From Bacillota bacterium (GTDB lineage Bacteria > Bacillota > Clostridia > Lachnospirales > Lachnospiraceae), in contig JAEZZQ010000050.1 in assembly GCA_023442465.1 (NCBI GenBank), forward strand, positions 14,843 to 78,842: a stretch of DNA of 64,000 bases, read 5' to 3'. The position numbers were made by a program, and so were the translations under genes. Positions 1,699 to 33,621 of the stretch are shown here, in pieces (position 1 is the first letter of the stretch; each line of letters opens with the position of its first letter). The notes under the pieces were generated by a model, which was not told the origin of the DNA, made no database searches, and was given only the letters and a program-made list of their open reading frames with translations.

Positions 1699-3726
1699 AT
1701 GATAAAGATGAAAAAGAAGCTTGTTGACAATAAGTCGGTATGGATTTGCGCGCTGCTGGGGGCGGTAGTATTTGTATTGATTTACGGTGTACATATTTTG
1801 AATCCCTGTTATACAGACTGGCTTATGATCAGTGAAGACGGAGATTTGACTCAGCATTATCTTGGCTGGAAGTTTTTCAGGCATGCGAGCTGGAAATTTC
1901 CTTTTGGACTCATCGATACGATAGCGTATCCCAATGCGACCTCGGTTATCTTTACCGATTCTATTCCTCTCTTTGCGGTGTTTTTTAAAGCGATTCGGTT
2001 TCTGCTGCCGGCACAGTTCCAGTATTTTGGATGGTTCGGCCTCTTATGCTTCATGCTTCAGGGGGGGATCGGTGCAGTTCTCGTGAAGAAATATTTAAAG
2101 AACGATTTTTTGATAGTGTTGGGAGGTATGTTATTTATACTGAGTCCTGCATTTATTGACAGAATGTACTGGATGACGTCTCTTTCCGCTCATTTTTTAT
2201 GTCTGCTGGCTCTTACATTTATCGTATATTATGATGAAATGTTTGGGGAGACGAGGAATGCACTGGTTGGCTGGGCAATATTAGGAGCGCTGTGCGCAAG
2301 TATTCATATATATTTTTTACCCATGTGCGGAATTATCCTGCTCGGATTTATGTTAATCGATTTTGTAAGGGGAAAGAAGAAGTGGAGAGTGCTGCTGCCG
2401 CTTTTATCCTACATAGGAGCAGCATCGGCTGTAGTTTTCCTCTTAGGCGGCTTTGGCTCGGGAATGAAGGCCGGGAACGATGGAGTAGGGTATTACAGCT
2501 TCAACTTGAATGGATTTTTTAATCCCCAAGGCTGGTCAGGCTATTGGAAGGACATGCCTTATACGGACAGCCAGTACGAGGGCTTTGCTTACTTAGGGCT
2601 TGGAATTTTGGTGTTGTTTTTTATCTCTTTTGTTCTATGGATAGGAAGTATAGCGATGAAGAAGGTGCGGATATCTATATGGATGAAGGATCATGTTCAG
2701 GAGCTTTCCTATGCGCTTATCATAGTGGTCACACTCATTGTATCTGCTTCCAATATCGTAATGTACAACGACAAGGTATTATATGAGCTGCCCGTTTCCG
2801 GGTTTGTTTATAAAATGTGGAGCGTTTTCCGGGCTACAGGACGCTTGATATGGCCGGTAGTTTATCTGCTCGTGCTTGGCGCAATATGTCTGGATATAAA
2901 GGTGATCGGTAAGCGGACGAAGGGGATTTTGCTGACGCTTTGCATGCTTTTACAGATTGCGGATATCAGGGGAATGCTGGCACAGAAGAATGAGGTATAC
3001 AATAAAGTGGACAGCTACCAGACCTTATTGCCCTCAGAGGTTTGGAGAATGCTCGCTGAGGAGACAGATGCAGAGCATATATGCTTCGTATCGGATGTGG
3101 CAAACAGCAGGAAGCTATTGTTTTCCTTCGGCGATTACGGGTCGAATTACGGGCTGACCTTGAGCGATTTTTACTTTGCACGTTCTATCGGGGATAAGAA
3201 AGTCATGGCACTGGATATGGCTTTGCAAGAGCTTCCGGCAGATACTGTTTTTGTCTTTTTCAAAAACGAGGCACAGAAATGTCTGAATTACGAAATGAAT
3301 TATTATGAGGTAGACGGACTGATTGTCGGATGCAGTGTTCCTCTCGGAGATATGGAGCTTCTTACCGGGAAGGATTTGACCACCTACCGCTATGAGCTTG
3401 AAAGCGGCCAGTTCATGAATAACGGAGAGGTAGTGGACGGCACATGGAACATCCATTCCTATGGAAATACTTATGGGCCGTATCTAAATGCGGAAGCGGG
3501 AAAATATAAGTTTACGGTAACGGGAAGCAATCTCGCATCCACAGAGGTAAAATGCTATTACGGCAGCGGAAATAAGAACCTCGAACCGCAGAATGTAATT
3601 CTTGGGGACACGCAGGTGTCTTATGAGGTTGAGCTTTCCGAGCACGCTGATGATCTGGAATTTGCCTTGTGGAATATAGGTGGTGCAGATATGGTCGTTT
3701 CCGGCATCGTGATTGAAAAGGAATAG
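1699..3726 (+). CDS. Large membrane protein with an N-terminal multi-TM region and a C-terminal extracytoplasmic domain (DUF6311-like; possible GT-C-type glycan-modifying enzyme)
   Basis: 675-aa ORF with a GAAGGAG RBS at 1688-1694. The N-terminal half is hydrophobic and the C-terminal roughly 250 aa are soluble. The family name is from memory of the GDLxQHYLGW-type N-terminus. Confidence 0.6.
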   Translation: MIKMKKKLVDNKSVWICALLGAVVFVLIYGVHILNPCYTDWLMISEDGDLTQHYLGWKFFRHASWKFPFGLIDTIAYPNATSVIFTDSIPLFAVFFKAIRFLLPAQFQYFGWFGLLCFMLQGGIGAVLVKKYLKNDFLIVLGGMLFILSPAFIDRMYWMTSLSAHFLCLLALTFIVYYDEMFGETRNALVGWAILGALCASIHIYFLPMCGIILLGFMLIDFVRGKKKWRVLLPLLSYIGAASAVVFLLGGFGSGMKAGNDGVGYYSFNLNGFFNPQGWSGYWKDMPYTDSQYEGFAYLGLGILVLFFISFVLWIGSIAMKKVRISIWMKDHVQELSYALIIVVTLIVSASNIVMYNDKVLYELPVSGFVYKMWSVFRATGRLIWPVVYLLVLGAICLDIKVIGKRTKGILLTLCMLLQIADIRGMLAQKNEVYNKVDSYQTLLPSEVWRMLAEETDAEHICFVSDVANSRKLLFSFGDYGSNYGLTLSDFYFARSIGDKKVMALDMALQELPADTVFVFFKNEAQKCLNYEMNYYEVDGLIVGCSVPLGDMELLTGKDLTTYRYELESGQFMNNGEVVDGTWNIHSYGNTYGPYLNAEAGKYKFTVTGSNLASTEVKCYYGSGNKNLEPQNVILGDTQVSYEVELSEHADDLEFALWNIGGADMVVSGIVIEKE

Positions 3727-3735
3727 ATAATAAGG

Positions 3736-4797
3736 CTAATCAGCAGGATGCCAGTTAGGGTCACCACTATGAATAGGATCGTTGTTTTGAAGAAATTCCC
3801 GGTATTCGGGAATTTCTTCTTTTATGGTATTCATAAATACGATGGAGCCCTCTGTATTTAAGTGGTCCGCATCTGAAAAGTACTCCAGATGTCTGGTAAA
3901 GCGCTCGTCCTGCGAATAATCATAATAAGGAATACCGGTAGCATCCGTTATAGCATGAATGGTACTGTAAAACTCTGCTTTGAATTCAGAGGAAACCATA
4001 TCAGTATAATATGAGGTGTAGGGCGTAGTGATGAGTACGGGAGTAATATCGTTTTCCATACAGAGATTTATAATGTCATACAAATTGTCTATGCGCTCCT
4101 GCATGAAATATTCGTCTTTGTTTTCCATATGTCTTTGATACCGGTTCATAGCTTTTTCATAAAACTGAGTCTCCGACTCTGTTTTTGCTTCCTCGGAAGT
4201 GGGGATGCTGCTTTCTGAGGCAAAGGCTTTTAGAGGCATGAACGAATACAAAACACTTGAGGGAAAAATTTTCACAATATCCTCTCCGGCGGACAGAATG
4301 GGCAGCCTATGTGTTACCAAATCGATATAAGGGCTATAGTCGGGGATATACCGAGGAGAGAGGAAAGTGTAATATTTAGCGTTCAGGGATTGCATTTCCG
4401 TTTCGTTAACCACTTCGTTATTAAAGGAAAAGTAAGAAATCGGAATGAACAGAATGCTGTCTTCTGCAAAATGCTCCCTATACATGGAGAGTATTGCGAG
4501 GTCATAGTTATAGGTCTGACTCGCCATGGCGAAGTTGAAGCATTCGTAGCCACCCTGTTTTGTCAGCTCCTCATAATAAAAAGCGTATTCTCCATGAGAG
4601 CTGCCGATATTGGCGATCTGGATATTGTTATAGTTGGAATTCATATAGTCGAACTTGTGCGCATCGGCATAAGGGTCTTCCATCACTTGCTTATAGCGGT
4701 AATTTAACAGCAGAAGAAACAAAAAGGCAATGCCGCTTACTGCGATACATTTCACGATAAAATATAGGTAAGACTTTTTCATAAGCTGCTCCATCAA
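3736..4797 (-). CDS. DltD-like / SGNH-fold extracytoplasmic acyltransferase partner of the upstream MBOAT
   Basis: It has an N-terminal TM anchor, an IGSSHG serine motif and a C-terminal SDADHLN (DxxH) block. Its start overlaps the MBOAT stop by 4 nt (ATGA coupling). Confidence 0.65.
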   Translation of the reverse strand: MMEQLMKKSYLYFIVKCIAVSGIAFLFLLLLNYRYKQVMEDPYADAHKFDYMNSNYNNIQIANIGSSHGEYAFYYEELTKQGGYECFNFAMASQTYNYDLAILSMYREHFAEDSILFIPISYFSFNNEVVNETEMQSLNAKYYTFLSPRYIPDYSPYIDLVTHRLPILSAGEDIVKIFPSSVLYSFMPLKAFASESSIPTSEEAKTESETQFYEKAMNRYQRHMENKDEYFMQERIDNLYDIINLCMENDITPVLITTPYTSYYTDMVSSEFKAEFYSTIHAITDATGIPYYDYSQDERFTRHLEYFSDADHLNTEGSIVFMNTIKEEIPEYREFLQNNDPIHSGDPNWHPAD

Positions 4798-6245
4798 AAC
4801 TGAAAATAATAGAATTCAGTCGATACTCCTTTCTCCGAAAATAAAAGAATGACGAGTAAAAATAAGATATAAACCGGGTAACGCACCCAGATTTTCTTCG
4901 AGGAAATATAGGAAATAACGTCTGTTTTCAGGGAGGCGTAATCGTAAATTCCAAGTAAAATCACGGGGATAGAGATATACACCATATGAGTATAAGTCAT
5001 ATCCAGGCAAATCACCGCTGTTTTCAAATATTCATTCAAATCATTGATTTGAAAAAGGCTTAAGCTGATCATTCGCCATGCATCCGCAAGGCTGCCTGCA
5101 CGGAAGAAAATCCATGCAAAGCAAACAAGAAAAAAGGTCAGAATGAGAGAGAAAAAGCTTAAGAAGCCTTTGCGGCGAACTATGTTTTTTCCTCTTTTGC
5201 GATGAAATAACAGGTTTTCTATAATTTGATAAAGGCCATGCAGTCCTCCCCATATGAGAAAGGTCAATCCTGCGCCATGCCAGAGACCGCTTACCAAAAA
5301 TGTAATCATCAAATTCAAAGCATGCCGGAGCCGGCCGACCCGATTGCCGCCCATAGGAATATATAAATAGTCTCGAAACCAGGTAGAAAGGGATATGTGC
5401 CAGCGGCTCCAGAATTCCTTTATGCTATGGGAAAAATAAGGACTCTTGAAGTTCTGTGTCAGTTCGATTCCAAACAGCATAGCAGTACCTACTGCGATAT
5501 CCGTATAGCCGGAAAAGTCGCAGTAAATTTGAATGGAGAACATAATCGTAACGATGATGTAAACCAAGCCAATATAGCTATTTACGTTGTCGAATACGGA
5601 ATCCACGCTGGATACGAGCAGATTAGCAACCACCAGTTTCTTAAAATAACCGACAGCCATAAGCTTTAATCCGTAAGCAGCCTTGGAGGAATCGAAGAGA
5701 CGTACTTCCTTAAATTGAGGAAGCAGCTTGTCTCCCCGTCCGATGGGGCCGGATAGAAGTTGGGGGAAAAAGGAGACAAATAAACTGTAATAACCGAAGT
5801 GCTTTTCCGCCGGGTACTTGCCCTTATATACGTCGATCAGATATCCGAGTGTCTGAAAAGTATAGAATGAAATTCCCACGGGCAGCATAAGCTTTAGGGT
5901 AGGGGTCTGTATTGGAATAGAAAATGACCGCATAGCGGCATTGATAATTTCGAAGAAAAAGTCTAAATACTTATATAGAAAGAGAATTCCTGTCAAAGAA
6001 AGAACTCCTGCTAAAAGCTCAATTCTTTTGGTGTGCAGGCTTTTTGCAGAGCCGAAGCTTCTGGCTAACAAATAAGAAACCGCGGTGCCAAACAGCAGGA
6101 GGAATACATACCGTACATCAAGGCTCATATAAAAATAATAACTGACCGCTAATAAAAAGATATATCGGTATTTAGAAGGACATATCCAGTATAATATAAA
6201 AACTATAGGTAAAAATATGGCAAAGGCCATAGAATTAAATAGCAT
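4794..6245 (-). CDS. MBOAT family O-acyltransferase (DltB/AlgI-like), copy 1
   Basis: 483-aa multi-TM protein with the conserved FWSRWHISLSTWFRDYLYIPMGGNR histidine motif. Confidence 0.9.
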   Translation of the reverse strand: MLFNSMAFAIFLPIVFILYWICPSKYRYIFLLAVSYYFYMSLDVRYVFLLLFGTAVSYLLARSFGSAKSLHTKRIELLAGVLSLTGILFLYKYLDFFFEIINAAMRSFSIPIQTPTLKLMLPVGISFYTFQTLGYLIDVYKGKYPAEKHFGYYSLFVSFFPQLLSGPIGRGDKLLPQFKEVRLFDSSKAAYGLKLMAVGYFKKLVVANLLVSSVDSVFDNVNSYIGLVYIIVTIMFSIQIYCDFSGYTDIAVGTAMLFGIELTQNFKSPYFSHSIKEFWSRWHISLSTWFRDYLYIPMGGNRVGRLRHALNLMITFLVSGLWHGAGLTFLIWGGLHGLYQIIENLLFHRKRGKNIVRRKGFLSFFSLILTFFLVCFAWIFFRAGSLADAWRMISLSLFQINDLNEYLKTAVICLDMTYTHMVYISIPVILLGIYDYASLKTDVISYISSKKIWVRYPVYILFLLVILLFSEKGVSTEFYYFQF

Positions 6246-6452
6246 AAATTACCTCAATACTTTCCTAAAATAATAATAACATATTATAGTTGATTTTAAA
6301 AGCTATGGCAATTAGCATTAAGTATCAATTTTTATACTTATCAGTCCATATTATGTCTATTTATATTAAAACAAACATTTATTAAGTTTTTTTTAAGTCC
6401 TTGGGAATAATTCCTTAATTATTCGGCAGAAAAAGTTATTGATGAAAAAATA

Positions 6453-6461
6453 TGTTATAAT
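6453..6461 (+). promoter_or_regulatory. Candidate extended -10 promoter (TGTTATAAT) for the SGNH lipoprotein gene and downstream genes
   Basis: TGnTATAAT lies about 70 nt upstream of the 6533 start in an AT-rich divergent intergenic region. The -35 is weak. Confidence 0.4.
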
Positions 6462-6532
6462 TTCAGTGTGCACATAAGATGGTCTGATTTATACGTTGTA
6501 ACTAAAATTTATGAATTCCGGGAGGAATAATA

Positions 6533-7549
6533 ATGAGGAGAAAAATGAAAAAGTATATTCTCTTAGCAATGCTTCTGCTTATTGCAGGCTGCGGGACAGC
6601 AGCGAAAAAGCAGGACATGGGAGAGGAGACATCGCAGGGAGCGGTAACCGTGCAGGAAATTCCCCAGGCGACGGAAGAAATGAATAAGGAAAATGAGAAG
6701 GAACGGGAAGAATCGCAGCCTGAGGAAGGAACTATTGTCGTTTCGCCGGGAGATTTGATCGAACCTGAAATCGAGGAGAAGGAAGTAACAGAAGCGGTTC
6801 CGGAAGTATCGGACGGTGGCCGCCTGCAGATAGTCTTTCTTGGAGACAGCATTCTGGACGGTTACCGGAATGAGACCGGAATCGCAGCAATTACCGGAAA
6901 TTTGTGCAATGCTGATGTGTACAATCTCGCTATGGGAGGAACGACGGCAGCTTTATCTCAATATGAAGGCGCTGTATTTGAAGATTGGAGTTCCCGCAGC
7001 TTGCAGGGAGTGGTGCATGCGATATGCGGGAACGTAGATGCAGGCATATTGAATGGTTATCGTGCAGGAGAGGTATTTGCCACCTGTGATTTCAGCCAAA
7101 CAGATTATTTTGTCATTGAATATGGAATGAACGATTTCCTTAGCGCGATTCCAATCAATAACGATTCCAGTACCAATCAGGAATACACCTATGTAGGAGC
7201 CTTAAGGATTGCCATTAACTGGCTGCGCAGCAGTTATCCCGATGCACAGATTGTTTTGTGTTCTCCGAACTATGCACAGTTTTGGGGAAAGGACGGAGCT
7301 TATCTGGGAGACGGTAACATGGTGGATAACGGAGGAGGCACGCTGGCAGCCTACTATCGCGTGTGCGGCAATGTTTCCGCGGATGAGCATACATTATTCC
7401 TAAATGCATACGAAGGAATCGGCTTAGATACCTATTCGGCGGATGAGTATTTGGAAGACGGCATCCATTTGTCGGAAAAAGGCCGCAGGAAATATGCGGA
7501 GAAGCTTTCGGAAGTTATTTTAGGATATGAAGAAACAAGAAATAATTAA
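6533..7549 (+). CDS. Secreted SGNH/GDSL hydrolase lipoprotein (esterase or acyltransferase)
   Basis: Lipobox LLIAGC; block I FLGDSILDG; block III YGMNDF; block V EDGIHLSEKG. The RBS GGGAGGA lies 7 nt upstream. Confidence 0.85.
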   Translation: MRRKMKKYILLAMLLLIAGCGTAAKKQDMGEETSQGAVTVQEIPQATEEMNKENEKEREESQPEEGTIVVSPGDLIEPEIEEKEVTEAVPEVSDGGRLQIVFLGDSILDGYRNETGIAAITGNLCNADVYNLAMGGTTAALSQYEGAVFEDWSSRSLQGVVHAICGNVDAGILNGYRAGEVFATCDFSQTDYFVIEYGMNDFLSAIPINNDSSTNQEYTYVGALRIAINWLRSSYPDAQIVLCSPNYAQFWGKDGAYLGDGNMVDNGGGTLAAYYRVCGNVSADEHTLFLNAYEGIGLDTYSADEYLEDGIHLSEKGRRKYAEKLSEVILGYEETRNN

Positions 7550-7572
7550 TATTTGAACAATGCAATGTAAGA

Positions 7573-7601
7573 TTGCGGCAAATAGTAAAATATGTTAAAA
7601 T
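7573..7601 (+). promoter_or_regulatory. Candidate sigma-A promoter TTGCGG-17-TAAAAT with a TG extension
   Basis: Hexamers are at 7573-7578 and 7596-7601 with TG at 7593-7594, upstream of the FkbH-like gene. Confidence 0.35.
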
Positions 7602-7605
7602 ACAA

Positions 7606-7633
7606 GGCGGATGTTTTAGCATCCGTCTTTTTT
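7606..7633 (+). terminator. Rho-independent terminator-like hairpin after the SGNH lipoprotein gene
   Basis: The stem GGCGGATG / CATCCGTC (one G-T pair) has the loop TTTTAG and is followed by TTTTTT. Confidence 0.55.
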
Positions 7634-7720
7634 CATGTAATTAGGAAAGTGGACGAGGCCTCCTTTTGTTCATCCGGAAAAAGAACTGATTCTAAAAAGA
7701 GTTTGCAGGAGAAGCATAGA

Positions 7721-9508
7721 GTGAAAGAATTGAAATATCCATTTGACAGCGAATATATTTTAAAAAAATCCAGGAAGCTTAGGCGTGAGCTTTTGGAAAA
7801 TGCCGTGCCGCGCCTTAAGAAAAAGATAGCGGTACTGGGCGGGAGCACCACCCATGACATCGTACGTATGCTGGAGCTGTTTCTTTTGGATCAGGGAATC
7901 GAATCGGAATTTTATGAATCGGAATACGGGCAGTATTTTCAGGAAGCTATGTTCGAAAATGAGGAACTTTCTTCCTTTGCGCCGGATATTATCTTTTTCC
8001 ATACGAGTAACCGGAACATTGCGGCATATCCGCAGATAGACGACAGCAAAGAGCAGGTCGAAGAGCTGTTAGCGGAGCAATACGGATATTTTTCCGGTAT
8101 GTGGGACAAGCTGAGAGATACGTATCATTGCCCAATCATACAGAATAACTTCGAATATCCATTCTATCGCATGCTGGGAAATAAAGATGCCAGTGACATT
8201 CATGGACGCATTCGTTTTATCACGAGATTGAACGAGCAGTTTTATGATTATGCACAGAATCATGAAAATTTTTATATTAACGATATAAATTATATGGCAG
8301 CGGCTTACGGCCTCGACAGATGGTCGGATCCTTTTTACTGGCATATGTATAAGTACTGCATGTGTATGCAGGCGATTCCAGAGTTCGCATTTAATTTATC
8401 CAATATTATTAAAGCTGTTTTCGGCAAAAATAAAAAGGCTCTGGTATTGGATCTGGATAATACGCTGTGGGGCGGCATTGTGGGAGATGACGGAGCCGAG
8501 AATTTGGAAATCGGTCAGGAGACTTCCCTTGGACAGGTGTATTCCGAGTTCCAGGCATATATAAAAGCGCACAAGGAAATCGGAGTAATGCTCAATGTGA
8601 GCTCCAAGAACGAAGAGGAGAATGCACTTGCCGGCCTGAGCCACCCGGAAGGAATTTTGAAGCCCGAAGATTTTATTCTCATAAAGGCTAATTGGGAGCC
8701 GAAGAGCATGAACATAGACGCGATTGCCTCGGAGCTGAATATTTTACCGGACAGCCTTGTGTTCGTAGACGATAATCCTGCGGAGCGGGAGATTGTCAGT
8801 GTGGATGTACCGGGAGTAGCCGTGCCGGACATAGGAAGACCGGAACAATACATTCATATTCTTGATCGCTCCGGCTTCTTCGAAGTAACGGGGCTTTCGC
8901 AGGACGATAGAAAGAGAAACGAAATGTATAAGGCCAATTTGCTCCGTGAAAAGCAGCAGGCAGGATTCGCAGATTACTCGCAGTACCTCCGCTCTCTTAG
9001 CATGCATGCAGTCATAAAGGCCTTCGAGCCGATGTACATGTCGAGAATTGCCCAGCTTACTAATAAAAGCAATCAATTCAATTTGACGACCAAAAGATAT
9101 ACTCAAAGCGAAATCGAGCAGACTGCAGCGTCTGCAGAACACATCGCCCTTTATGGCAGGCTTGAGGATAAATTCGGAGATAACGGAATAGTTTCCGTTG
9201 TCATAGGGCGGAAGGAAAGCGAAGCGCTGCATATAGAATTATGGATTATGAGCTGCCGTGTACTGAAAAGAGATATGGAATACGCCATGATGGACTGTCT
9301 TGTGCAGGAGTGTAAAAAGGAAGGCCTGCATACGATCTTAGGCTATTACTATCCTACGGCTAAAAATCAAATGGTAAAAAACTTCTATGATTTACAAGGC
9401 TTCAGCAAGATAGAAGAGGATTCCGAAGGGAATACTACATGGGAATATAAAATTCCCGAAAACTATGAAAATAAGAATAAGGTCATAGAAGTATATGGAA
9501 AAAATTGA
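7721..9508 (+). CDS. FkbH-like HAD-superfamily IIIC enzyme with a GNAT-like C-terminal domain (candidate ACP-loading enzyme)
   Basis: HAD motif I is VLDLDNTLWGG. There is a flavodoxin/SGNH-like N-domain (IAVLGGSTTHD) and a GNAT-like C-terminal fold. The preferred start is GTG 7721, with AGGAG at 7707-7711. The longer ATG 7592 ORF would run through the terminator hairpin. Confidence 0.8.
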   Translation: MKELKYPFDSEYILKKSRKLRRELLENAVPRLKKKIAVLGGSTTHDIVRMLELFLLDQGIESEFYESEYGQYFQEAMFENEELSSFAPDIIFFHTSNRNIAAYPQIDDSKEQVEELLAEQYGYFSGMWDKLRDTYHCPIIQNNFEYPFYRMLGNKDASDIHGRIRFITRLNEQFYDYAQNHENFYINDINYMAAAYGLDRWSDPFYWHMYKYCMCMQAIPEFAFNLSNIIKAVFGKNKKALVLDLDNTLWGGIVGDDGAENLEIGQETSLGQVYSEFQAYIKAHKEIGVMLNVSSKNEEENALAGLSHPEGILKPEDFILIKANWEPKSMNIDAIASELNILPDSLVFVDDNPAEREIVSVDVPGVAVPDIGRPEQYIHILDRSGFFEVTGLSQDDRKRNEMYKANLLREKQQAGFADYSQYLRSLSMHAVIKAFEPMYMSRIAQLTNKSNQFNLTTKRYTQSEIEQTAASAEHIALYGRLEDKFGDNGIVSVVIGRKESEALHIELWIMSCRVLKRDMEYAMMDCLVQECKKEGLHTILGYYYPTAKNQMVKNFYDLQGFSKIEEDSEGNTTWEYKIPENYENKNKVIEVYGKN

Positions 9509-9576
9509 AAGCCAGTAAGGCGTGAAAGCAAGTCCCACACAACGTGGCTTACTGCATGAAAAGGAAGGAAATAATT

Positions 9577-9816
9577 ATGACGAGAGAAGAAGTATTTAAG
9601 ACTTTAAGCGAAGTGTTTCAGGACGTATTTGACGATGAAACTATTACAGTGAATGAAACGACTACTTCAGAGGATATCGAAGATTGGGATTCTCTGGAGC
9701 ATATTAATCTGATTGCTGCAGTAGAGCAGGAATTCGGTATGAAATTTACCATGGGGCAAGTAGTCACGATGAAGAATGTAGGCGAAATGGCTGATATTAT
9801 TATCAGCCGGATTTAA
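9577..9816 (+). CDS. Acyl carrier protein (about 79 aa)
   Basis: It has the phosphopantetheine attachment motif DWDSLEHINL and is acidic. The RBS AAGGAAGGAA precedes ATG 9577. Confidence 0.85.
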   Translation: MTREEVFKTLSEVFQDVFDDETITVNETTTSEDIEDWDSLEHINLIAAVEQEFGMKFTMGQVVTMKNVGEMADIIISRI

Positions 9817-9828
9817 GCGAATCGTTAA

Positions 9829-9962
9829 GGTTACTGTTCACACAGTAGATTAACACTTGCTGTTAAGCTACGTAAGAATGTGATGCAAGAGATGATTTCT
9901 GCTTCGCGAAGCGAATTTGAATGCAGAAATCGTGAGTTACTTTGAACGGAGTGAACAGTAAC
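9829..9962 (+). mobile_element. MITE-like repeat, family 1, copy 1 (terminal inverted repeats GTTACTGTTCAC / GTGAACAGTAAC)
   Basis: The element is about 133 bp and near-identical to the copies at 38546, 42731 and 56035. It fills the gap between the convergent ACP and VOC genes. Flanking 7-mers are TCGTTAA and GCGTTAG (5/7 match). Confidence 0.8.
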
Positions 9963-9965
9963 GCG

Positions 9966-10370
9966 TTAGGAGCGGACCTCCAGAAGCTCTATCATCCCGA
10001 GACTCGCGTTCATTAAAAAGGTCACGCGCATATTCTCCAGGGCAGGAGCTGGCGTGGGCATGTCGATGGCGGTATATCCGTTTTCGGTAAGGTATGCCAG
10101 GTCATTTTCGAAGTTGCGTGATTCGTAGCAAAGATGATAAGGCGTATTTTTATATTTTTTTAAAAGTCCCGCAACGACGGAGTCGGAACTGACCGGGGAG
10201 ACAAGCTCTACTACGTATCCATCCTTCTCCATAAAACAAATATTGATTTTGCGGTAATCATCATAGATGATATCCTGACGGAGCACATATCCAAGCTGTT
10301 GGAACTGTGCTGCTGCCGCATTTATTTTTTTCACTAAATATCCGATATGGTGTACTTTTAAATCTATCAT
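9966..10370 (-). CDS. VOC-family protein, methylmalonyl-CoA-epimerase/glyoxalase-like
   Basis: 134 aa with VHHIGYLV, ELVSP, YHLCYE and MIELLE segments that match the paired beta-alpha-beta-beta-beta metal-site pattern. An AGGAGG RBS is present. Confidence 0.75.
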   Translation of the reverse strand: MIDLKVHHIGYLVKKINAAAAQFQQLGYVLRQDIIYDDYRKINICFMEKDGYVVELVSPVSSDSVVAGLLKKYKNTPYHLCYESRNFENDLAYLTENGYTAIDMPTPAPALENMRVTFLMNASLGMIELLEVRS

Positions 10371-10400
10371 TGTATTTTCGAGTCCTCCTCATATTCGATA

Positions 10401-10430
10401 TTACGATTCAGCCTTCGGCTTCTTGATAAC
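10401..10430 (-). repeat. Solo 3' hairpin module of repeat family 2 (GTTATCAAGAAGCCGAAGGCTGAATCGTAA on the minus strand)
   Basis: It matches the GTTRCTATGRAGCCGTARGCTGAATAGTAAC module seen at 16413, 28893, 33622 and 33700. It ends 30 nt upstream of the VOC start. Confidence 0.6.
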
Positions 10431-10472
10431 AATTGATACAGCACTTGCAAGCCCGGAAAGGATTTCTTTTTT

Positions 10473-12008
10473 ATGGGAGCAACGTTTACATCCTTTTATT
10501 TTTTGTGCTTTTATGCATGTATATTAATTATATATTATCTGATTCCTCAAAAAACGCAATGGGTATTTTTGCTTTTATCCAGCATCGCGTATTATTTGCT
10601 CTCCGGAAACGGCATACTAATTTTGTATCCGGTCTGCGCATGTATTGCGGCATATGCGGGTATACGAATTATGGGCGGGACGGATAGCCTGAAGCGGAAA
10701 AGAGCTGCTCTGGCGGGAGTGGTCTTGCTGCTCGTCGGCTCTTTAGTAATGCTTAAGTATGTGAACTTCGGCATCAATACGGTAAATGGAATTGCAGGGC
10801 TATTTGGAAGTGAGGAGGCGGTACTTACCGGATTTAAACTTATGGTGCCTCTTGGAATATCCTTTTATACTTTTTCCATCCTCGGCTATGTGATAGACGT
10901 GTACAATGGAATTGCCGTGCCTCAGAAGAATTTTTTCAAAACGGCGCTGTATGGTATGTATTTTCCTTCTATTTTATCAGGACCTATTCTGCGGTATCGG
11001 GAGGACGGAGAACAGTTCTTCACACCTCATCCCTTCAACTATAGGGAAGTGACCTTCGGTTTGCAGCGAATGGTGTGGGGATTTTTCAAAACCTTGGTAA
11101 TTTCCGAGAGAATGCGCTTTGTGGTGGATACGGTTTACGGTAATTACGGAGATTATCCCGGCGCATACATATGGCTGGCTACGGTATGTTATGCGTTTCA
11201 GCTCTATACTAATTTCTCCGGTTGTATGGATATCGTTCTGGGAGTGTCTCAGACTTTCGGTCTAAAGCTTCCCGAAAACTTTGCTACTCCCTTTTTTGCA
11301 AAAAATATTTCGGAATACTGGAGAAGATGGCATATCACGCTGGGCGTATGGATGAAGGAATATGTGTTTTATCCGCTGCTTCGTACCGGAATCTTTAGCC
11401 GTCTTTCCAAAAATATGAGAGAACGGTTCGGTAAGAAGAGGGGAAAACAGCTCACTACCTTTCTGGCAATGTTCGTGCTTTGGTTTTCGGTGGGAATCTG
11501 GCATGGCGGGGATTGGAAGTACGTCATCGGTTCCGGTCTGCTGCACTGGTTCTACATCGTATCGGGAGAGCTTCTGACACCCTTTTTTAATAAGTTTATG
11601 GAAAGACTTCATATCGATCCGAAGAAAAGATGGGTGGATGTACTGCGCATGCTGCGCACATTCTTCCTCGTAAACATCGGTTTCGTGTTCTTCCGGGCGG
11701 ATAGTGCGGCGGATGCTTTTCATATGCTGAAGGGAGCGGTAAGCGTATGGAATGCCGGAATATTGTTTGACGGCTCCGTATTTACGCTGGGGCTGGATTT
11801 TATAGAATTTACAATAGCGATAGTATCCCTGCTCATTCTGTTTGCGGTATCTGTTATGCAGCAGAAGGAAAGCGTCAGGGAGCGGATTGAGAAGAAAAAA
11901 CTTCCCGTTCGGTGGATTATCTGGTATGCTCTTTTGTTCTATACCATATTGCTTGGAAATTATGGACCGGGATACAGTGCGGCGGAGTTTATCTATCAGG
12001 GCTTCTAA
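10473..12008 (+). CDS. MBOAT family O-acyltransferase, copy 2
   Basis: 511-aa multi-TM protein with the motif YWRRWHITLGVWMKEYVFYPL. No adjacent DltD-like gene. Confidence 0.85.
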   Translation: MGATFTSFYFLCFYACILIIYYLIPQKTQWVFLLLSSIAYYLLSGNGILILYPVCACIAAYAGIRIMGGTDSLKRKRAALAGVVLLLVGSLVMLKYVNFGINTVNGIAGLFGSEEAVLTGFKLMVPLGISFYTFSILGYVIDVYNGIAVPQKNFFKTALYGMYFPSILSGPILRYREDGEQFFTPHPFNYREVTFGLQRMVWGFFKTLVISERMRFVVDTVYGNYGDYPGAYIWLATVCYAFQLYTNFSGCMDIVLGVSQTFGLKLPENFATPFFAKNISEYWRRWHITLGVWMKEYVFYPLLRTGIFSRLSKNMRERFGKKRGKQLTTFLAMFVLWFSVGIWHGGDWKYVIGSGLLHWFYIVSGELLTPFFNKFMERLHIDPKKRWVDVLRMLRTFFLVNIGFVFFRADSAADAFHMLKGAVSVWNAGILFDGSVFTLGLDFIEFTIAIVSLLILFAVSVMQQKESVRERIEKKKLPVRWIIWYALLFYTILLGNYGPGYSAAEFIYQGF

Positions 12009-12084
12009 GAGCGGGAACGGGCTGTCTATCGGTTATTTTGATAGACGGGCATGCGATACTCTGCTAAAATAGAAAAAGCATGAA

Positions 12085-12121
12085 GGAAATGATTGTTACT
12101 GAGAACGGAGTGAACAGTAAC
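12085..12121 (+). repeat. Solo 3' hairpin module of repeat family 1 (GTTACTGAGAACGGAGTGAACAGTAAC)
   Basis: It is identical to the 3' end of the full copies and ends 32 nt upstream of ATG 12154. Confidence 0.7.
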
Positions 12122-12153
12122 ACATGATTGGAAGGAAACTGGAGAGAGTTAAA

Positions 12154-13095
12154 ATGGATAAAATTGCGGTTTTGATACCATGCTACAATGAAGAAAAAAC
12201 GATTGCAAAGGTAGTGGCCGATACGAAGAAGGCGCTGCCGGAAGCGGTGGTTTATGTATATGACAACAATTCTACGGATCGTACGGTTGAACTGGCGACT
12301 GCGGCGGGGGCCGTAGTGCGGCATGAATATATGCAGGGAAAAGGGAATGTGATCCGCAGGATGTTCCGTGAAATCGATGCCCAGTGTTATGTCATGGTGG
12401 ATGGAGATGACACTTATCCTATGGAATATGCTCCGGAGATGGTGGAGAAGGTGCTCGAACACCATGCGGATATGGTGGTGGGAGACAGGCTTTCCTCCAC
12501 ATATTTTACTGAAAATAAAAGGCCCTTTCACAATTTGGGAAACAGTCTTGTAAGAGGCACGATCAATCGTCTGTTCGGATGTGAGATCAAAGACATTATG
12601 ACGGGATTTCGAGCATTCAGCTATGGCTTTGTCAAGACTTTTCCGGTACTTTCCAAGGGCTTTGAGATAGAGACAGAGATGACCATACACGCCGTGTTTA
12701 ACAACATGCAGATTGAAAATGTAATCGTAGACTACAGGGACAGGCCTGAGGGCAGCCAGTCCAAGTTGAATACTTACTCGGACGGAATGAGAGTGCTCGG
12801 AACGATTGGAAGGCTGTATAAGGATTACAAGCCTTTTGGCTTTTTTTCTCTGCTGGCGCTTATTCTTGCAGTAATCGCTACTGTATTCTTCATCCCAATA
12901 TTGGTGGCTTTTATAAGAACCGGGGTGGTGGATAAGTTTCCTACACTGTTTGTTTGCTGTTTCGTTATGCTGGCGGCAGTTCAGGCCTTTTTCTCCGGCA
13001 TGATTCTGTCCAATATGGCGCTGAAAAACAGAAGGGACTTCGAATTCCGTTTGAACATGATTCAGGGGAAGATAAAAAATGATGATGTGGATTAA
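12154..13095 (+). CDS. Membrane-anchored GT2 glycosyltransferase of the GtrB/CsbB type (polyprenyl-phosphate sugar synthase)
   Basis: IAVLIPCYNEEKTI, the DGDDTYP DXD motif and two C-terminal TM helices. The RBS GGAGAGAG precedes ATG 12154. Confidence 0.85.
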   Translation: MDKIAVLIPCYNEEKTIAKVVADTKKALPEAVVYVYDNNSTDRTVELATAAGAVVRHEYMQGKGNVIRRMFREIDAQCYVMVDGDDTYPMEYAPEMVEKVLEHHADMVVGDRLSSTYFTENKRPFHNLGNSLVRGTINRLFGCEIKDIMTGFRAFSYGFVKTFPVLSKGFEIETEMTIHAVFNNMQIENVIVDYRDRPEGSQSKLNTYSDGMRVLGTIGRLYKDYKPFGFFSLLALILAVIATVFFIPILVAFIRTGVVDKFPTLFVCCFVMLAAVQAFFSGMILSNMALKNRRDFEFRLNMIQGKIKNDDVD

Positions 13096-14503
13096 AAAAA
13101 TAAAAAAATATACAACTTCTTTGGAAAAATGGGATATGGGCCTGCTCATCGTATGTTTGGGCTTCTATCTCTTTTTTCCGTTTTACGACGGGCCGGTGTG
13201 GTGCGCAGATTCTCCCAGCTATGCAACTATGAACATTACGAGGGAGCCTTTATATCCTACGTTTCTATGGATATTTCGCAGCCTGTTCGGCGAAGAAGGG
13301 TATCTCATGCCCGTGGTGATCATTCAAAGCCTCCTCGCAGCGTATGCGACGTGGAAACTGGCTGTTACCGTGAAAAAATATAAAGCCGGCAGCCGGCTGC
13401 TGGCTTTTTTGTCCGTATGCTTTCAGTTCGGTGTAACGTTTCTCTGCCGCTTTGTGGCGATTAGAGGTTCTTCGTATATCGACAGCATTATGACCGAAGG
13501 GCTCGGCTTATCTCTCTATGTACTCTTTATCGTTCAGCTATACAAATATATTATGGAAGAAAAGATGCGTAATCTGGCGGCGACAGCATGCTTTGCCCTG
13601 CTTCTCGTTAATCTCCGCAAGCAGATGCTCATTTCACTTGCTTTGATGGCAGCGGTATTTATCCTATATTATCTCATAAAAAAGAGGAACATGAAAAAGC
13701 TGCTGTTATTGCTGGGACTGACCGTATGCTTATTTTTTGCCGGCAAGCTTTCAGACCGCTTTTACAACTATTGCGTCAGGGGCGTTTGGATGGAACATTC
13801 CGGCAACTCTATGGGGATGCTGTGCACATTGATTTATACCTCCGAGGAGGGGGACGCTTCTTTGTTCGAGGATGAGACGGTGCGCGGCCTATATGAGGAG
13901 ATTCTTGCGCAGGCAAACGAGCAGGGGCTTCGCAAGATGTATGCGCCTGAAGGATGGGTGGATTTATCTACTCATTATGCGGACAGCTACGATGCCATAG
14001 GTTATGGTATCATCAATCCGGTGGTTCAGGAATATATTGCAGAGCATTTTGAATATTCGGAAATAGATGCGGTACTTCAATATGATATATATTGTAATTC
14101 GATGGCAAAGACGCTGCTTTTGCAAGGGACACACTTTGATACGGGTGATTTGCTTCAGGTCTTTTTGGCAAATACGTGGAAGGGCTTTGTTAATTCCATC
14201 GCAAGGGTGAATACTTATCTGAATTTATATGCGGTTTTGGCATATGTGCTCTATCTTCTTTTGTACGTGTATTCTTCTTGCGAAGGCAGCAAGCCGAATG
14301 CAAGCCGAAAAGGGTGGAGGTTACCGGACAGTACGCTGACCATGGCAGAGATTGTGATCGGCGGAGTGATTGTGAATTCCATTGTGGTAGGGGCCATGAT
14401 ATTTACGCAGCCCCGCTATATGATTTATAATATGGGGTTGTTTTATACAGCATTGTCTCTGTTGGCATACGATTTACTTCCTTGGAAGGGGAGAAAGCAG
14501 TGA
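13079..14503 (+). CDS. Polytopic membrane protein, candidate GT-C-type extracytoplasmic glycosyltransferase
   Basis: 474-aa hydrophobic protein. Its start overlaps the GT2 stop, and its position matches the GtrC/YfhO slot of three-component glycosylation systems. Confidence 0.55.
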   Translation: MMMWIKKIKKYTTSLEKWDMGLLIVCLGFYLFFPFYDGPVWCADSPSYATMNITREPLYPTFLWIFRSLFGEEGYLMPVVIIQSLLAAYATWKLAVTVKKYKAGSRLLAFLSVCFQFGVTFLCRFVAIRGSSYIDSIMTEGLGLSLYVLFIVQLYKYIMEEKMRNLAATACFALLLVNLRKQMLISLALMAAVFILYYLIKKRNMKKLLLLLGLTVCLFFAGKLSDRFYNYCVRGVWMEHSGNSMGMLCTLIYTSEEGDASLFEDETVRGLYEEILAQANEQGLRKMYAPEGWVDLSTHYADSYDAIGYGIINPVVQEYIAEHFEYSEIDAVLQYDIYCNSMAKTLLLQGTHFDTGDLLQVFLANTWKGFVNSIARVNTYLNLYAVLAYVLYLLLYVYSSCEGSKPNASRKGWRLPDSTLTMAEIVIGGVIVNSIVVGAMIFTQPRYMIYNMGLFYTALSLLAYDLLPWKGRKQ

Positions 14504-14575
14504 GGTGTATTCCGGTAAAAATTGGGGGACTTTGAAGAAATATGATTTGAATATGGATAAGGGTAAGGATGATAG

Positions 14576-16348
14576 ATGATTAAGAGGGTGTTTAATTACT
14601 GGTATTTGGTTTTGATTGGAGCATTTTTTGCAGTATCGATCGGGGTTTATGCTTGCTTTGGCGAGGAAAGTTATATTGCTGTACATGATAATCTTGACCT
14701 GTTCGTGGCGCAGTTCCAGATGATGAAAAATACAGGGAGCTTTTTTGCCCATAATGTGGAAGCCCCCTTTTTAGGAGGAATCAGCAGGGATAATCTCCCT
14801 TCAGAGCTTTCGCTTTATACAGTGCTGTTTATGTGTCTGCCTTCCTTCGCGGCGTATATAACGGGATATTTTCTTAAGATAGTGATAGCGATGGTTTCGG
14901 TATGGCTGCTGGCAGGGGACTGGTACGCAGAGAAGAGGAAAGAGTATCGTTCGCTTGTAGCACTGCTTGGTTTTGCCTATGGGGCTTTGAACATGTTTCC
15001 TGCTTTTGGAATTCCGTTCACCTCTATCCCGCTTGTCATTTACTTACTGAGAAGGATATATAAGAAGCCCTCGGTTTGGTTATATTTAGCCCTTTTTTGT
15101 TATCCTTTTTTGTCTTATTTTTCTTATTTCGGTTTTTTTATTCTCGCTTACCTTACCGTTGCTGTTATCTGGCTTGCCATTCGGGATAAAAAGCTTTCCA
15201 AAGCCTTACTGCTTGCACTTTTTGTGCTTGGGGCAGGATACGTGGCCTTTGAATACCGCCTGTTTAGCGTAATGCTTTTTAGCGATACGCAGACGATTCG
15301 CGCTACCATGGTGGAGGCGGATTTAACGGCGGGAGAGGTTCTGAGACAGATTGGGGACGTGTGGAAAAATGGAATGTTCCATGCGGAAAGCGTACATGGG
15401 AAGCTGGTACTTCCGGTTTGCATCTTATATTTTATTTATCTGAACGGTAAATATATGAAGGATAGAAATTGGAGGGGGATTTTTCATGACAGCTATAACC
15501 TTCTCATCTTTGTGATTTTATTTAACAGCATAATATACGGAATTTATAATTGGGGCGGCTTTCGCAGGCTGGTGGAAACTCTTCTGCCGCCGCTCAAGGG
15601 ATTTCAATTTAATAGGACAGTATTTTTCAGCCCGTTTTTATGGTATGCGTCTTTCTTTATGGTGCTGCAGCGTCTTTGTGATTGCCGGAGCTTGCCTTTT
15701 CTGGGAAAAATAAAGGAGAAAGATGTGTTGAAATGGCTGACAAGCGGTCTTGCGAATGGGCTGGCACTAGCTTCGATTGCCATTATCCTTCTGACTCCCG
15801 GCAGGTATAACGATTGGTACGCCACCTGCAAAAATAAGACATTAGAGCTGGCCAAGGGAAAAGTGGCCGATGATATGTCCTATGGGGAATTCTATTCTAC
15901 GGAATTATTTACGGAAATCAAAGAGGACATCGGTTATGGCGGCGAATGGGCCGTAGCATATGGAATTCATCCGGCGGTATTAGAATATAACGGCATTGCT
16001 ACGCTGGACGGTTATCTGGGTTTTTATTCCCAGCAATATAAAGAAGAGTTTCGCAAGGTGATAGCTCCTGCGCTGGAAAGGGTGGAAGCCAGCAGGATTT
16101 ATTATGACGACTGGGGGGCACGGGTGTATGTGTATTCCGGGACGGATGTTTCCGTAGTAAGTGCTACAAAGACAATACATGTAACTGATCATGATTTATA
16201 TATGGATACCGGGGCTTTTAAGGAATTGGGGGGGAAGTATATTTTTTCCCGGATTGAGCTTGGAAACGCGAAGGCGCTGGGACTTACGCTCGTGAAGGCA
16301 TATGAACAGGAGAAGTCACCTTATATAATTTATTTATATGAAAAATAG
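14576..16348 (+). CDS. Large polytopic membrane protein with a C-terminal soluble domain (DUF6044-like)
   Basis: 590-aa ORF with a hydrophobic N-terminal two-thirds. The family name is from memory only. Confidence 0.55.
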   Translation: MIKRVFNYWYLVLIGAFFAVSIGVYACFGEESYIAVHDNLDLFVAQFQMMKNTGSFFAHNVEAPFLGGISRDNLPSELSLYTVLFMCLPSFAAYITGYFLKIVIAMVSVWLLAGDWYAEKRKEYRSLVALLGFAYGALNMFPAFGIPFTSIPLVIYLLRRIYKKPSVWLYLALFCYPFLSYFSYFGFFILAYLTVAVIWLAIRDKKLSKALLLALFVLGAGYVAFEYRLFSVMLFSDTQTIRATMVEADLTAGEVLRQIGDVWKNGMFHAESVHGKLVLPVCILYFIYLNGKYMKDRNWRGIFHDSYNLLIFVILFNSIIYGIYNWGGFRRLVETLLPPLKGFQFNRTVFFSPFLWYASFFMVLQRLCDCRSLPFLGKIKEKDVLKWLTSGLANGLALASIAIILLTPGRYNDWYATCKNKTLELAKGKVADDMSYGEFYSTELFTEIKEDIGYGGEWAVAYGIHPAVLEYNGIATLDGYLGFYSQQYKEEFRKVIAPALERVEASRIYYDDWGARVYVYSGTDVSVVSATKTIHVTDHDLYMDTGAFKELGGKYIFSRIELGNAKALGLTLVKAYEQEKSPYIIYLYEK

Positions 16349-16443
16349 AGCTGTGCTGCCGAAGTGCTTGGCGGTGAGAGTGTGCGAAGCACACTTTTGT
16401 TCTACATTAATTGTTACTATGGAGCCGTAGGCTGAATAGTGGC
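16349..16443 (+). repeat. Composite intergenic repeat (family 2 variant) ending in the 3' hairpin module
   Basis: It shares AGCTGTGCTGCC and GCGAAGCACACTTTTGT blocks with 28792-28812 and, in inverse orientation, with 32538-32585. It ends GTTACTATGGAGCCGTAGGCTGAATAGTGG. Confidence 0.7.
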
Positions 16444-16462
16444 AGAAGGAGAAATGAGATGT

Positions 16463-27340: not shown

Positions 27341-27650
27341 TTTATATCCTCCGATTAGATATATCTATAAGATATATGGTATTGCTGATTTTGTGCTTTG
27401 TCAAGACAGAAAAACAGGAAGGAGGTATACCGGTATGCCCTATTTGGGTTTTCTGAATGATCCATTGTCACTTCTGGCGGAGCAGGAAAAGCGAGTGGTA
27501 ACATGCAGCAGGATGAAATACCAGGGGAAAGGGAAAACAGAAAAGCAATGTATAAAATAGATGTATGGACAGATAATGCGAATTGGGTTAAACTTACAAA
27601 TAGCAACCTGCAATCTGGGTATAAAGAATAGTGAAACGGAGCAGACAGTA

Positions 27651-31400: not shown

Positions 31401-31464
31401 TGGGAGCAATATTGGGGAGTATGCCGATCGGTATGCACTTGAAACGCTTGAGGAATAAAAGAGA

Positions 31465-33592: not shown

Positions 33593-33621
33593 AACGATTC
33601 CTCCGATGAGCATATATTTAC

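Follow-up and report, generated by a model that had tools for sequence, protein, structure and literature searches.

In the Dlt pathway, the carrier protein DltC is the acyl donor to DltB, a membrane-bound O-acyltransferase (MBOAT) that lacks a C-terminal FXYXXF motif, the motif being supplied by the microprotein DltX (PMC12148441). An FXYXXF C-terminus in the MBOAT itself is the signature of the PatA/AlgI type, in which the motif Tyr takes on the acyl group and passes it to an SGNH partner (PMC12148441). The MBOAT/SGNH pathways other than Dlt draw on an acyl-CoA donor and therefore have no carrier protein; PatA is the one fused-motif MBOAT for which the use of acyl-CoA (acetyl-CoA) was shown biochemically, and this was extended to the other fused-motif MBOATs (PMC12148441). 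In another setting, an FkbH-like enzyme acting with a free-standing acyl carrier protein (ACP) produces glyceryl-ACP with 1,3-bisphosphoglycerate as its starting material (PMC7489565). Here we analysed a 64-kb stretch of contig JAEZZQ010000050.1 from a Lachnospiraceae bacterium (the window), in which positions 3736-12008 encode a predicted FkbH-like enzyme, an ACP, a VOC metalloenzyme, two MBOATs and two SGNH-type proteins (Table 1). With a probability of about 60%, we propose that this region specifies a carrier-protein-dependent MBOAT-SGNH pathway that would O-acylate a cell-wall polysaccharide, with a core made of the FkbH-like enzyme, the ACP, the VOC protein, the second MBOAT (MBOAT 2) and an outside SGNH-type transferase.

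As read from its genes, such a module would be a hybrid: a PatA-architecture MBOAT tied genetically to a Dlt-like dedicated carrier whose loader is of the FkbH type and not of the DltA type. We describe it as a hybrid because the non-Dlt MBOAT/SGNH pathways have no carrier protein (PMC12148441). A preliminary description of this DNA had stated that no system combining an FkbH-type loader, an ACP and an MBOAT was known to be characterised for a surface polymer, and none turned up in the searchable literature (an incomplete library). The papers found to link FkbH and MBOAT were those on the aeruginosin and suomilide natural products, in which the two serve unrelated steps.

Results

The FkbH-like enzyme and its carrier protein

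The gene set of the region was checked by listing of open reading frames (ORFs) and by profile searches. All seven genes of the preliminary description were present at the positions it gave or close to them, with profile support far beyond chance, except that the DltD-like protein has no Pfam match of its own; TIGR01686, PF00550 and PF03062 were all matched above cut-off by the FkbH-like protein, the ACP and the MBOATs, respectively. The match of the FkbH-like protein to TIGR01686 reached 281.5 bits (cut-off 146.65) and covered profile positions 3-320 of 323, and that to the HAD-IIIC profile reached 58.4 bits (cut-off 35.75). Among solved structures it matched 3slr (BF1531 of Bacteroides fragilis) at E 1.9e-52, and it is 33-36% identical to the FkbH domains of megasynthases.

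Conservation was assessed in an alignment of 132 diverse members of the family (13,627 clusters at 50% identity), which included FkbH domains in megasynthases of 2,554 and 5,663 aa. With V1 encoded at 7721, the HAD motif residues were all kept in the window protein, namely D244, D246 and T248 (DxDxT), S295-K296-N297, K328 and D350-D351. M510-S511-C512-R513, R517 and E520 were further residues conserved in at least 95% of the members, and the window protein carries every one of them. The loss of catalytic residues that the preliminary description had considered was thus not observed, all family-invariant residues being kept.

From these matches and from structural models, the enzyme is predicted to begin with FkbH_N, to continue with a HAD-IIIC phosphatase domain and to close with a third, GNAT-fold domain in which the invariant Cys512 lies; going by work on OzmB, we take this Cys to be the acyl-enzyme site. 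The full-length AlphaFold2 (AF2) model was poor in the HAD domain, with a predicted local distance difference test (pLDDT) score below 50, and the N- and C-terminal domains were used alone. The C-terminal domain matched GNAT folds with a target-normalised template modelling (TM) score of about 0.7. In the fold search, the N-terminal and HAD domains matched BF1531 (3slr) at E 5.6e-22.

A longer reading frame for this gene, with a start at 7592, was rejected: it begins inside the terminator-like hairpin that lies upstream, and homologues are 592-600 aa long. For both reasons we take the GTG at 7721, which has GGAG before it, as the likely start.

The ACP gene follows, with the ribosome-binding site AGGAAGGA upstream of its ATG at 9577. 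The protein scores under the cut-offs of all equivalog models for fatty acid synthase ACPs, which fits the role of a dedicated carrier. The ACPs encoded beside the window FkbH gene and beside BF1531-like FkbH genes form one subfamily, with 37-46% identity and a shared WDSL(S/E)HI...KNVGEM.

Linkage across genomes

Two surveys were carried out. The first was anchored on FkbH and covered 80 loci out of 330 stretches from species-representative genomes holding close FkbH relatives; almost all of the 80 carry the labels Lachnospiraceae or unclassified Bacillota/Clostridiales, a few being metagenome-assembled genomes (MAGs) labelled Bacteroides or Clostridium. The ACP was adjacent to FkbH in 79 of the 80 loci. 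Near FkbH were also found the VOC gene (65/80), a MBOAT 2 orthologue (63/80), the SGNH lipoprotein gene (63/80) and the GT2 gene (56/80). The DltD-like protein that pairs with MBOAT 1 occurred in 20/80, and true orthologues of MBOAT 1 (at least 50% identity) in about 35/80. The second survey was anchored on MBOAT 2 in metagenome contigs and counted 62 loci, each extending 3 kb or more upstream: FkbH and ACP were present in 50 of these, and in 43 the ACP gene ended at most 1.3 kb upstream of MBOAT 2 on the same strand. The gene types are thus linked in both directions, in keeping with the linkage that the preliminary description had expected.

Among the MBOATs of the window, MBOAT 2 alone tracks FkbH and ACP; MBOAT 1 and the DltD-like protein are a separate PatA/PatB-style pair. 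What had been described as one module at 3736-12008 therefore merges two systems. The association appears to end at MBOAT 2 relatives of 37-38% identity, which keep a DltD-like partner and for which FkbH and ACP were not seen in the stretches covered (about 9 kb on each side in locus L164). The nearest genome is that of Kineothrix alysoides KNHs209, apparently an isolate and not a MAG: its FkbH protein shares 96% identity with that of the window, and its locus (L001) matches the window in gene order.

Tightly packed versions of the module were found in two groups of loci. In a metagenome contig (L158), a compact operon on one strand runs from FkbH through ACP and VOC, whose gene overlaps the ACP stop codon, to an MBOAT with the C-terminus FIYEKF and then a DltD-like protein, and in L043 the order is FkbH, ACP, MBOAT and an overlapping DltD-like gene, then MaoC and SDR. 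The second group encodes FkbH relatives 75-80% identical to B. fragilis BF1531; one of its sources, P0494, is a Paraprevotella sp., and we infer that these BF1531-like loci belong to Bacteroidales. Here, L085 and L086 encode FkbH, ACP, an MBOAT ending FIYFQF and a 310-aa anchored partner within a Wzm/Wzt polysaccharide locus; intergenic gaps in the L085 and L158 operons are about 10-25 bp. L081 has the order FkbH, VOC, ACP, and L083 and L087 the order FkbH, MaoC, SDR, ACP, AT3 within a Wzy capsule locus. The BF1531 gene itself stands after UpxZ and before an ACP gene. The linkage appears to cross phyla.

In L083, L087 and L088 (about 11100-15300), AT3 (Acyl_transf_3) genes take the place of the MBOAT gene after FkbH-MaoC-SDR-ACP. 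From this placement, AT3 proteins may be further acceptors of acyl groups from the same carrier protein. A wider reading, that gut Bacillota and Bacteroidota share a modular and hitherto unrecognised class of systems for acylating surface glycans, with an ACP onto which FkbH diverts glycolytic 1,3-bisphosphoglycerate, swappable tailoring (none, VOC or MaoC+SDR) that decides between glyceroyl, its epimer or dehydrated form, and lactyl, and an MBOAT or AT3 protein accepting from the carrier and not from CoA, is one that we put forward tentatively, as somewhat short of an even chance.

The MBOATs carry a fused acyl-shuttle motif

The WHI(S/T)L histidine noted earlier in MBOATs 1 and 2 was read in both translations. 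Both also carry a WHG histidine, which aligns with the WHG of DltB (8jem/6bug). DltB structures were matched by MBOAT 1 at E 1.7e-25 and by MBOAT 2 at E 1.5e-21. The alignments end at residues 390-408 (408 in MBOAT 2, which has a C-terminal extension of about 100 aa), and about 95-105 residues remain. On the DltB equivalog model TIGR04091, the window MBOATs scored 151.8 and 144 bits and did not reach the cut-off of 375. MBOATs 1 and 2 are 31% identical to each other. A micro-ORF resembling DltX and ending in FXYXXF was looked for in the window and none was found. By their sequences, all three MBOATs of the window are assigned to the PatA/AlgI type with a fused FXYXXF acyl-shuttle motif and not to the DltB/DltX type; the Dlt-like architecture first ascribed to them thus gives way to one with a fused motif and an extension of about 100 residues, as in PatA and AlgI.

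MBOAT 1 presumably uses an acyl-CoA donor, as does the pair at 29880-32517. The latter consists of the third MBOAT and a DltD-like anchored protein (31465-32517) with no Pfam match, and beyond it, on the minus strand, lies a gene for a weakly GDSL-like anchored protein (32618-33613).

An ACP-specific clade of MBOATs was considered and rejected: no signature was found, the MBOATs of L085, L043 and the window being no closer mutually than to the unlinked MBOATs 1 and 3.

The VOC protein and tailoring of the acyl group

The VOC protein had been likened to methylmalonyl-CoA epimerase, but on the corresponding model (TIGR03081) it scored 44.2 bits and did not reach the cut-off of 114.95. Its best match in the PDB was glyoxalase I of Clostridium acetobutylicum (2qh0/3hdp, E 1e-31), methylmalonyl-CoA epimerases of the PDB matching at just E 1e-3; it is thus closer to glyoxalase I, and it scores below the cut-offs of both the glyoxalase I and the epimerase equivalog models. 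In L158 its gene separates ACP from MBOAT, and in L081 and L059 it separates FkbH from ACP. Since the VOC gene is embedded in FkbH-ACP operons, the substrate is probably an ACP thioester and not a glutathione hemithioacetal. Glyoxalase I and methylmalonyl-CoA epimerase both act through an enolate or enediolate beside the thioester, and on this ground, together with fold and operon position, the VOC protein would act at C2 of glyceryl-ACP. Epimerisation, giving the opposite glyceryl enantiomer, would be the most likely outcome, and dehydration towards pyruvoyl a less likely one.

Three flavours of the module were distinguished, with no tailoring enzyme, with VOC (as in the window) or with MaoC+SDR, and all three were seen in both locus groups. 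VOC together with MaoC+SDR occurred in 0 of 160 loci surveyed. The combination of FkbH, a dehydratase, a ketoreductase and an ACP is known from polyketide loading modules (for example BryA of bryostatin), where it converts the glyceryl unit derived from 1,3-bisphosphoglycerate to D-lactyl-ACP. A published FkbH loading module yields D-lactate-ACP, which supports that much of the scheme and not the full MaoC+SDR set (PMC7901079). By analogy, the MaoC+SDR flavour probably makes lactyl-ACP, and the flavour with no tailoring enzyme probably plain glyceryl-ACP. The lactyl-like product once proposed to follow VOC action found no specific support, the lactyl-type gene set in sister modules being MaoC+SDR in replacement of VOC.

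In L111, L115, L138 and L145 (about 14100-15900), ACP and VOC come straight after the SGNH lipoprotein gene, and FkbH was not detected (below 50% coverage at E 1e-5). FkbH may have been lost or degraded in these loci, or a different loader may be used. In L022 (10518-12059) and 27 other loci, a 1.7-kb gene stands between ACP and VOC. It was rejected as a candidate acyl-processing enzyme, for its product is a multi-pass membrane protein of 513 aa that matched nothing in Pfam.

Outside partners

The SGNH lipoprotein holds all four blocks of its family (GDS, GG, GMND and DGIH, read from the translation), and in most of the 63 loci that have it, its gene is the one immediately upstream of FkbH. 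It is likely to be the extracytoplasmic partner of MBOAT 2 in the window, rather than the DltD-like protein. Other versions of the locus carry a DltD-like protein instead, either just 3' of the MBOAT 2 orthologue (L043, L158) or about 3 kb upstream of FkbH (L097-L101). The hairpin that precedes FkbH, a match to the terminator consensus, suggests that the lipoprotein gene would form a separate transcription unit.

The DltD-like protein encoded with MBOAT 1 is the weakest gene label, since the protein itself has no significant Pfam match (down to E=1); a search of its family profile against PDB sequences was also empty. The label was retained as a tentative one because many homologues match PF04914 (DltD), because G65-S67-H68-G69 (GSSHG) and D309/D311/H312 (DxDH) are invariant in the family, and because of fold matches: the ten best PDB matches of its AF2 model (pLDDT 84.5) were all DltD, at E of about 1e-4 and with a TM score of just about 0.4. 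In the model, residues 2-38 form an N-terminal helix. The ATG of this gene overlaps the stop codon of MBOAT 1 (TGATG), which agrees with the translational coupling noted before.

Proposed pathway and alternative explanations

In the pathway that we propose, the HAD domain of the FkbH-like enzyme would take 1,3-bisphosphoglycerate from glycolysis and remove its 3-phosphate; the invariant Cys in the GNAT-fold domain would then bind the glyceryl unit and hand it to the dedicated ACP's phosphopantetheine arm. Glyceryl loading is suggested by family membership and by the intact residues. The VOC protein would then act on the ACP thioester via a C2 enolate, which is the weakest step of the model. 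The acyl-ACP would next dock on the cytoplasmic face of MBOAT 2, and the catalytic His would move the acyl group to the Tyr of FIYQGF at the outer face, by analogy with the route from DltC through DltB to the Tyr of DltX and with the auto-acylation of PatA. Finally, the Ser of the SGNH lipoprotein, or a DltD-like protein in other locus versions, would take the acyl group and esterify the polymer, probably a rhamnose-containing wall polysaccharide encoded 25 kb downstream. The acyl group passed from ACP to MBOAT would be glyceroyl or its VOC-modified form. On these sequence grounds the central idea of the preliminary description, an FkbH-type loader and an ACP feeding an MBOAT for a surface glycopolymer, is supported by gene identities, residues and linkage, its details having been corrected as given above.

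Several observations weigh against this pathway. The set with which the window FkbH was compared consists of family members and megasynthase domains, with no characterised FkbH enzyme among them. Pairwise identities among the ACP-linked MBOATs of the two locus groups are 29-33%, no different from those to unlinked MBOATs. MBOAT 2 and GT2 are not adjacent to FkbH-ACP in about half of the loci, where they lie 4-8 kb away. The VOC gene of the window is on the opposite strand, and the hairpin there parts the SGNH lipoprotein gene from FkbH; elsewhere, four loci have ACP and VOC with no detectable FkbH, and in some (L092) no SGNH partner was seen nearby. To our knowledge, glyceroyl or lactyl esters have not been reported on Lachnospiraceae wall polymers.

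These points leave room for other explanations. MBOAT 2 could be an ordinary acetyl-CoA-dependent O-acetyltransferase like PatA or AlgI, with FkbH, ACP and VOC serving a cytoplasmic step, such as the making of an acylated nucleotide sugar or lipid-linked repeat unit, and co-located as decoration of the same polymer. The PatA type of MBOAT 2, with its fused FXYXXF, would agree with this, PatA itself taking acetyl-CoA (PMC12148441), as would the failure to find an ACP-specific MBOAT clade, the distance of several kb between MBOAT 2 and FkbH-ACP in many loci, and some BF1531-like loci in which FkbH-ACP has no MBOAT within the contig stretch covered. However, no candidate cytoplasmic acyltransferase (LbH, GNAT, condensation or ketosynthase (KS)-like) was found in or beside the module in the window, tight FkbH-ACP-(VOC)-MBOAT-partner operons recur in Lachnospiraceae-type and BF1531-like loci, 43/62 MBOAT 2 orthologues come directly after an ACP gene, and a membrane AT3 acyltransferase stands directly 3' of the ACP where the MBOAT is absent. 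This is the foremost of the alternatives, but we consider it unlikely. A reading in which FkbH and ACP belong to a small-molecule pathway, for a tetronate or a methoxymalonyl extender, with the MBOATs as unrelated neighbours, would find its precedent in the biochemically characterised FkbH/ACP pairs, all of which serve polyketide or tetronate pathways. Yet the conserved neighbours here are MBOAT, SGNH, GT2 and GT-C-like membrane proteins, and among the annotated ORFs of the 64-kb window there is no gene for a KS, a FabH-like enzyme, an acyltransferase (AT) of the synthase type, an FkbI/K dehydrogenase, an O-methyltransferase or a non-ribosomal peptide or polyketide synthase (PKS). As the window holds no synthase genes, the PKS/tetronate reading was rejected, and the small-molecule explanation as a whole is highly improbable.

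The pathway could also run as proposed with a different substrate, if this clade of FkbH loads a unit other than glyceryl (for example from another acyl phosphate) and the ester formed is not a C3 hydroxy acid. The modest identity of the window protein to megasynthase FkbH domains leans this way; BF1531, a member of the same polysaccharide-linked clade, was deposited as uncharacterised, and glyceryl loading leaves the role of the VOC protein unaccounted for. The full-length TIGR01686 match far over cut-off and the retention of every family-invariant FkbH residue argue for glyceryl, and the MaoC+SDR alternative found with FkbH and ACP fits a glyceryl start, with the reservation that the lactyl function of the full set is general background, the D-lactate-ACP outcome alone being covered by the literature cited above. 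We regard a different substrate as quite unlikely, and glyceryl loading with transfer through MBOAT 2 is the reading that we retain.

Polysaccharide context of the window

The genes of the region and the other features considered are collected in Table 1. Positions 0-33 kb of the window form a decoration island with GT2, GT-C-like proteins (DUF6311, DUF6044, DUF2142/PMT), three MBOAT pairs and extra SGNH proteins. The GT2 gene at 12124-13095, which comes after MBOAT 2 in most loci, belongs to this island and not to the acylation chemistry. Multi-pass membrane proteins are encoded at 14576-16348, 1699-3726, 16439-17983 and 27561-28760 (DUF6044, at E 6e-176, DUF6311, DUF2142/PMT-like and DUF6077), and among these DUF proteins there are probably GT-C-type glycosyltransferases to which this GT2 supplies its product; DUF6044 was near FkbH in 59/80 loci.

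Table 1. Positions of the acylation genes and associated features in the window
Feature	Position	Strand	Evidence and remarks
DltD-like membrane-anchored SGNH-type protein, 353 aa	3736-4797	-	homologues with PF04914; coupled to MBOAT 1
MBOAT 1, 483 aa	4794-6245	-	PF03062 E 4.5e-30, 105.5 bits (cut-off 27); ends FYYFQF
SGNH lipoprotein	6533-7549	+	PF13472 47.1 bits (cut-off 32.9), E 5e-12; PF00657; lipobox LIAGC
Terminator-like hairpin	7604-7629	+	between SGNH lipoprotein gene and FkbH; 11-bp stem then T-run; consensus match only
FkbH-like acyl-ACP synthase (predicted)	7721-9508	+	TIGR01686, HAD-IIIC, PF21211 FkbH_N; motif DLDNTLWGG
ACP, 79 aa	9577-9816	+	PF00550 26 bits (cut-off 20.8); phosphopantetheine serine in EDWDSLEH
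VOC metalloenzyme (glyoxalase I / methylmalonyl-CoA epimerase-like)	9966-10370	-	PF13669 Glyoxalase_4, 61 bits (cut-off 27), E 1.5e-16
MBOAT 2, 511 aa	10473-12008	+	PF03062 E 4.7e-14, 52.9 bits (cut-off 27); ends FIYQGF
GT2 polyprenyl-phosphate sugar synthase (AglJ/GtrB-like)	12124-13095	+	PF00535 E 3.7e-20; TIGR04182 203 bits, below cut-off
Third MBOAT	29880-31400		ends FLYFNF

Other genes of the island recur as well. A radical SAM/SPASM protein (18157-19134) was near FkbH in 41/80 genomes and a further secreted SGNH protein (19208-20224) in 38/80. An amine-oxidase-like flavoprotein (PF01593 + NAD_binding_8) is encoded near the module at 20274-21866 on the minus strand; its family is also present in the BF1531-like locus L081 (4735-6297), beside GtrA and FkbH-VOC-ACP, and may be a further conserved component.

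Wall-polysaccharide genes lie at 37-59 kb and encode RmlA/B/C, Wzm/Wzt, GT2s, a phosphoglucomutase, a priming transferase and an LCP ligase. They make up a complete rhamnose-type cluster (37364-58926), in which Wzt has a Wzt_C domain, a methyltransferase fusion and four or five GT2 are present, and the priming enzyme is of the Bac_transf family. The probable acceptor is an ABC-transporter-dependent, rhamnose-containing polymer attached to peptidoglycan. A GH25 muramidase-like gene (39647-41041) lies among the rml genes, and just upstream of them is the gene for a 935-aa secreted protein (34424-37231) with a GH25 muramidase, Big_2 and choline-binding-type wall-binding repeats.

Discussion

MBOAT-SGNH acylation of envelope polymers is at present described in two forms, Dlt, with a carrier and a separate DltX, and the acetyl-CoA systems PatA, AlgI and WssH. 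The module would be a third form, joining a PatA-type fused-shuttle MBOAT to a dedicated ACP, the loader of which is of a type not known so far outside polyketide and tetronate biosynthesis. Gut Lachnospiraceae carry it widely, and apparently Bacteroidales do as well; its BF1531-like homologues are located in capsule and O-antigen-type loci. Were the wider reading given above correct, PatA-type MBOATs and also AT3 proteins could depend on a carrier protein, and hydroxy-acid esters would be predicted on the wall and capsule polysaccharides of commensals. If the module works as proposed, new ester substituents (glyceroyl, lactyl) would be expected on the surface glycans of major gut commensals, where they could affect phage adsorption, access of lysozyme or autolysins, and immune recognition. 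A function would also be provided for the structural-genomics protein BF1531.

Comparison with known systems

The likeness to Dlt lies in a dedicated small carrier protein encoded beside an MBOAT and an SGNH/DltD-type outside transferase, in the expected passage of the acyl group across the membrane as acyl-Tyr in an FXYXXF motif, and in DltB being the best solved-structure match for MBOATs 1 and 2. In contrast to Dlt, the window loader is an FkbH-type HAD/GNAT enzyme and not the adenylating DltA (no AMP-binding enzyme is among the annotated ORFs of the window), the acyl group is expected to be a hydroxy acid and not D-Ala, and FXYXXF is fused to the MBOATs, whereas Dlt has a separate DltX. 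With PatA/PatB, AlgI/AlgJ/AlgX and WssH the window shares an MBOAT whose C-terminus is extended by about 100 residues and closes with FXYXXF, a separate SGNH partner and an extracytoplasmic glycopolymer substrate; those systems use acetyl-CoA and have no carrier (PMC12148441), whereas MBOAT 2 is tied to an ACP and its loader.

The glyceryl-ACP synthases of methoxymalonyl-ACP and tetronate pathways (FkbH, OzmB, Mad7/Mad14) have in common with the window the FkbH domain with DxDxT, SKN, K, DD and Cys, and an adjacent standalone ACP. They differ in that the window lacks downstream dehydrogenases, an O-methyltransferase, a FabH-like enzyme and a PKS, the apparent client of its ACP being a membrane acyltransferase. 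In trans-AT PKS systems, FkbH-DH-KR-ACP loading modules (DH, dehydratase; KR, ketoreductase) such as that of BryA make a D-lactyl starter with the same functional set as L043, L083 and L087. Unlike these, the proteins of the module described here are free-standing and not synthase domains, and the window has VOC and not MaoC+SDR.

The VOC protein finds its best solved relative, over its full length, in C. acetobutylicum glyoxalase I, from which it differs in that its family is embedded in FkbH-ACP operons. BF1531 resembles the window protein in its FkbH_N and HAD architecture, in the ACP of the same subfamily that follows it and in its place in a capsule locus beside UpxZ; it is 33-35% identical to the window protein and no MBOAT is visible on its short contig, but its close relatives pair with an MBOAT or an AT3 protein.

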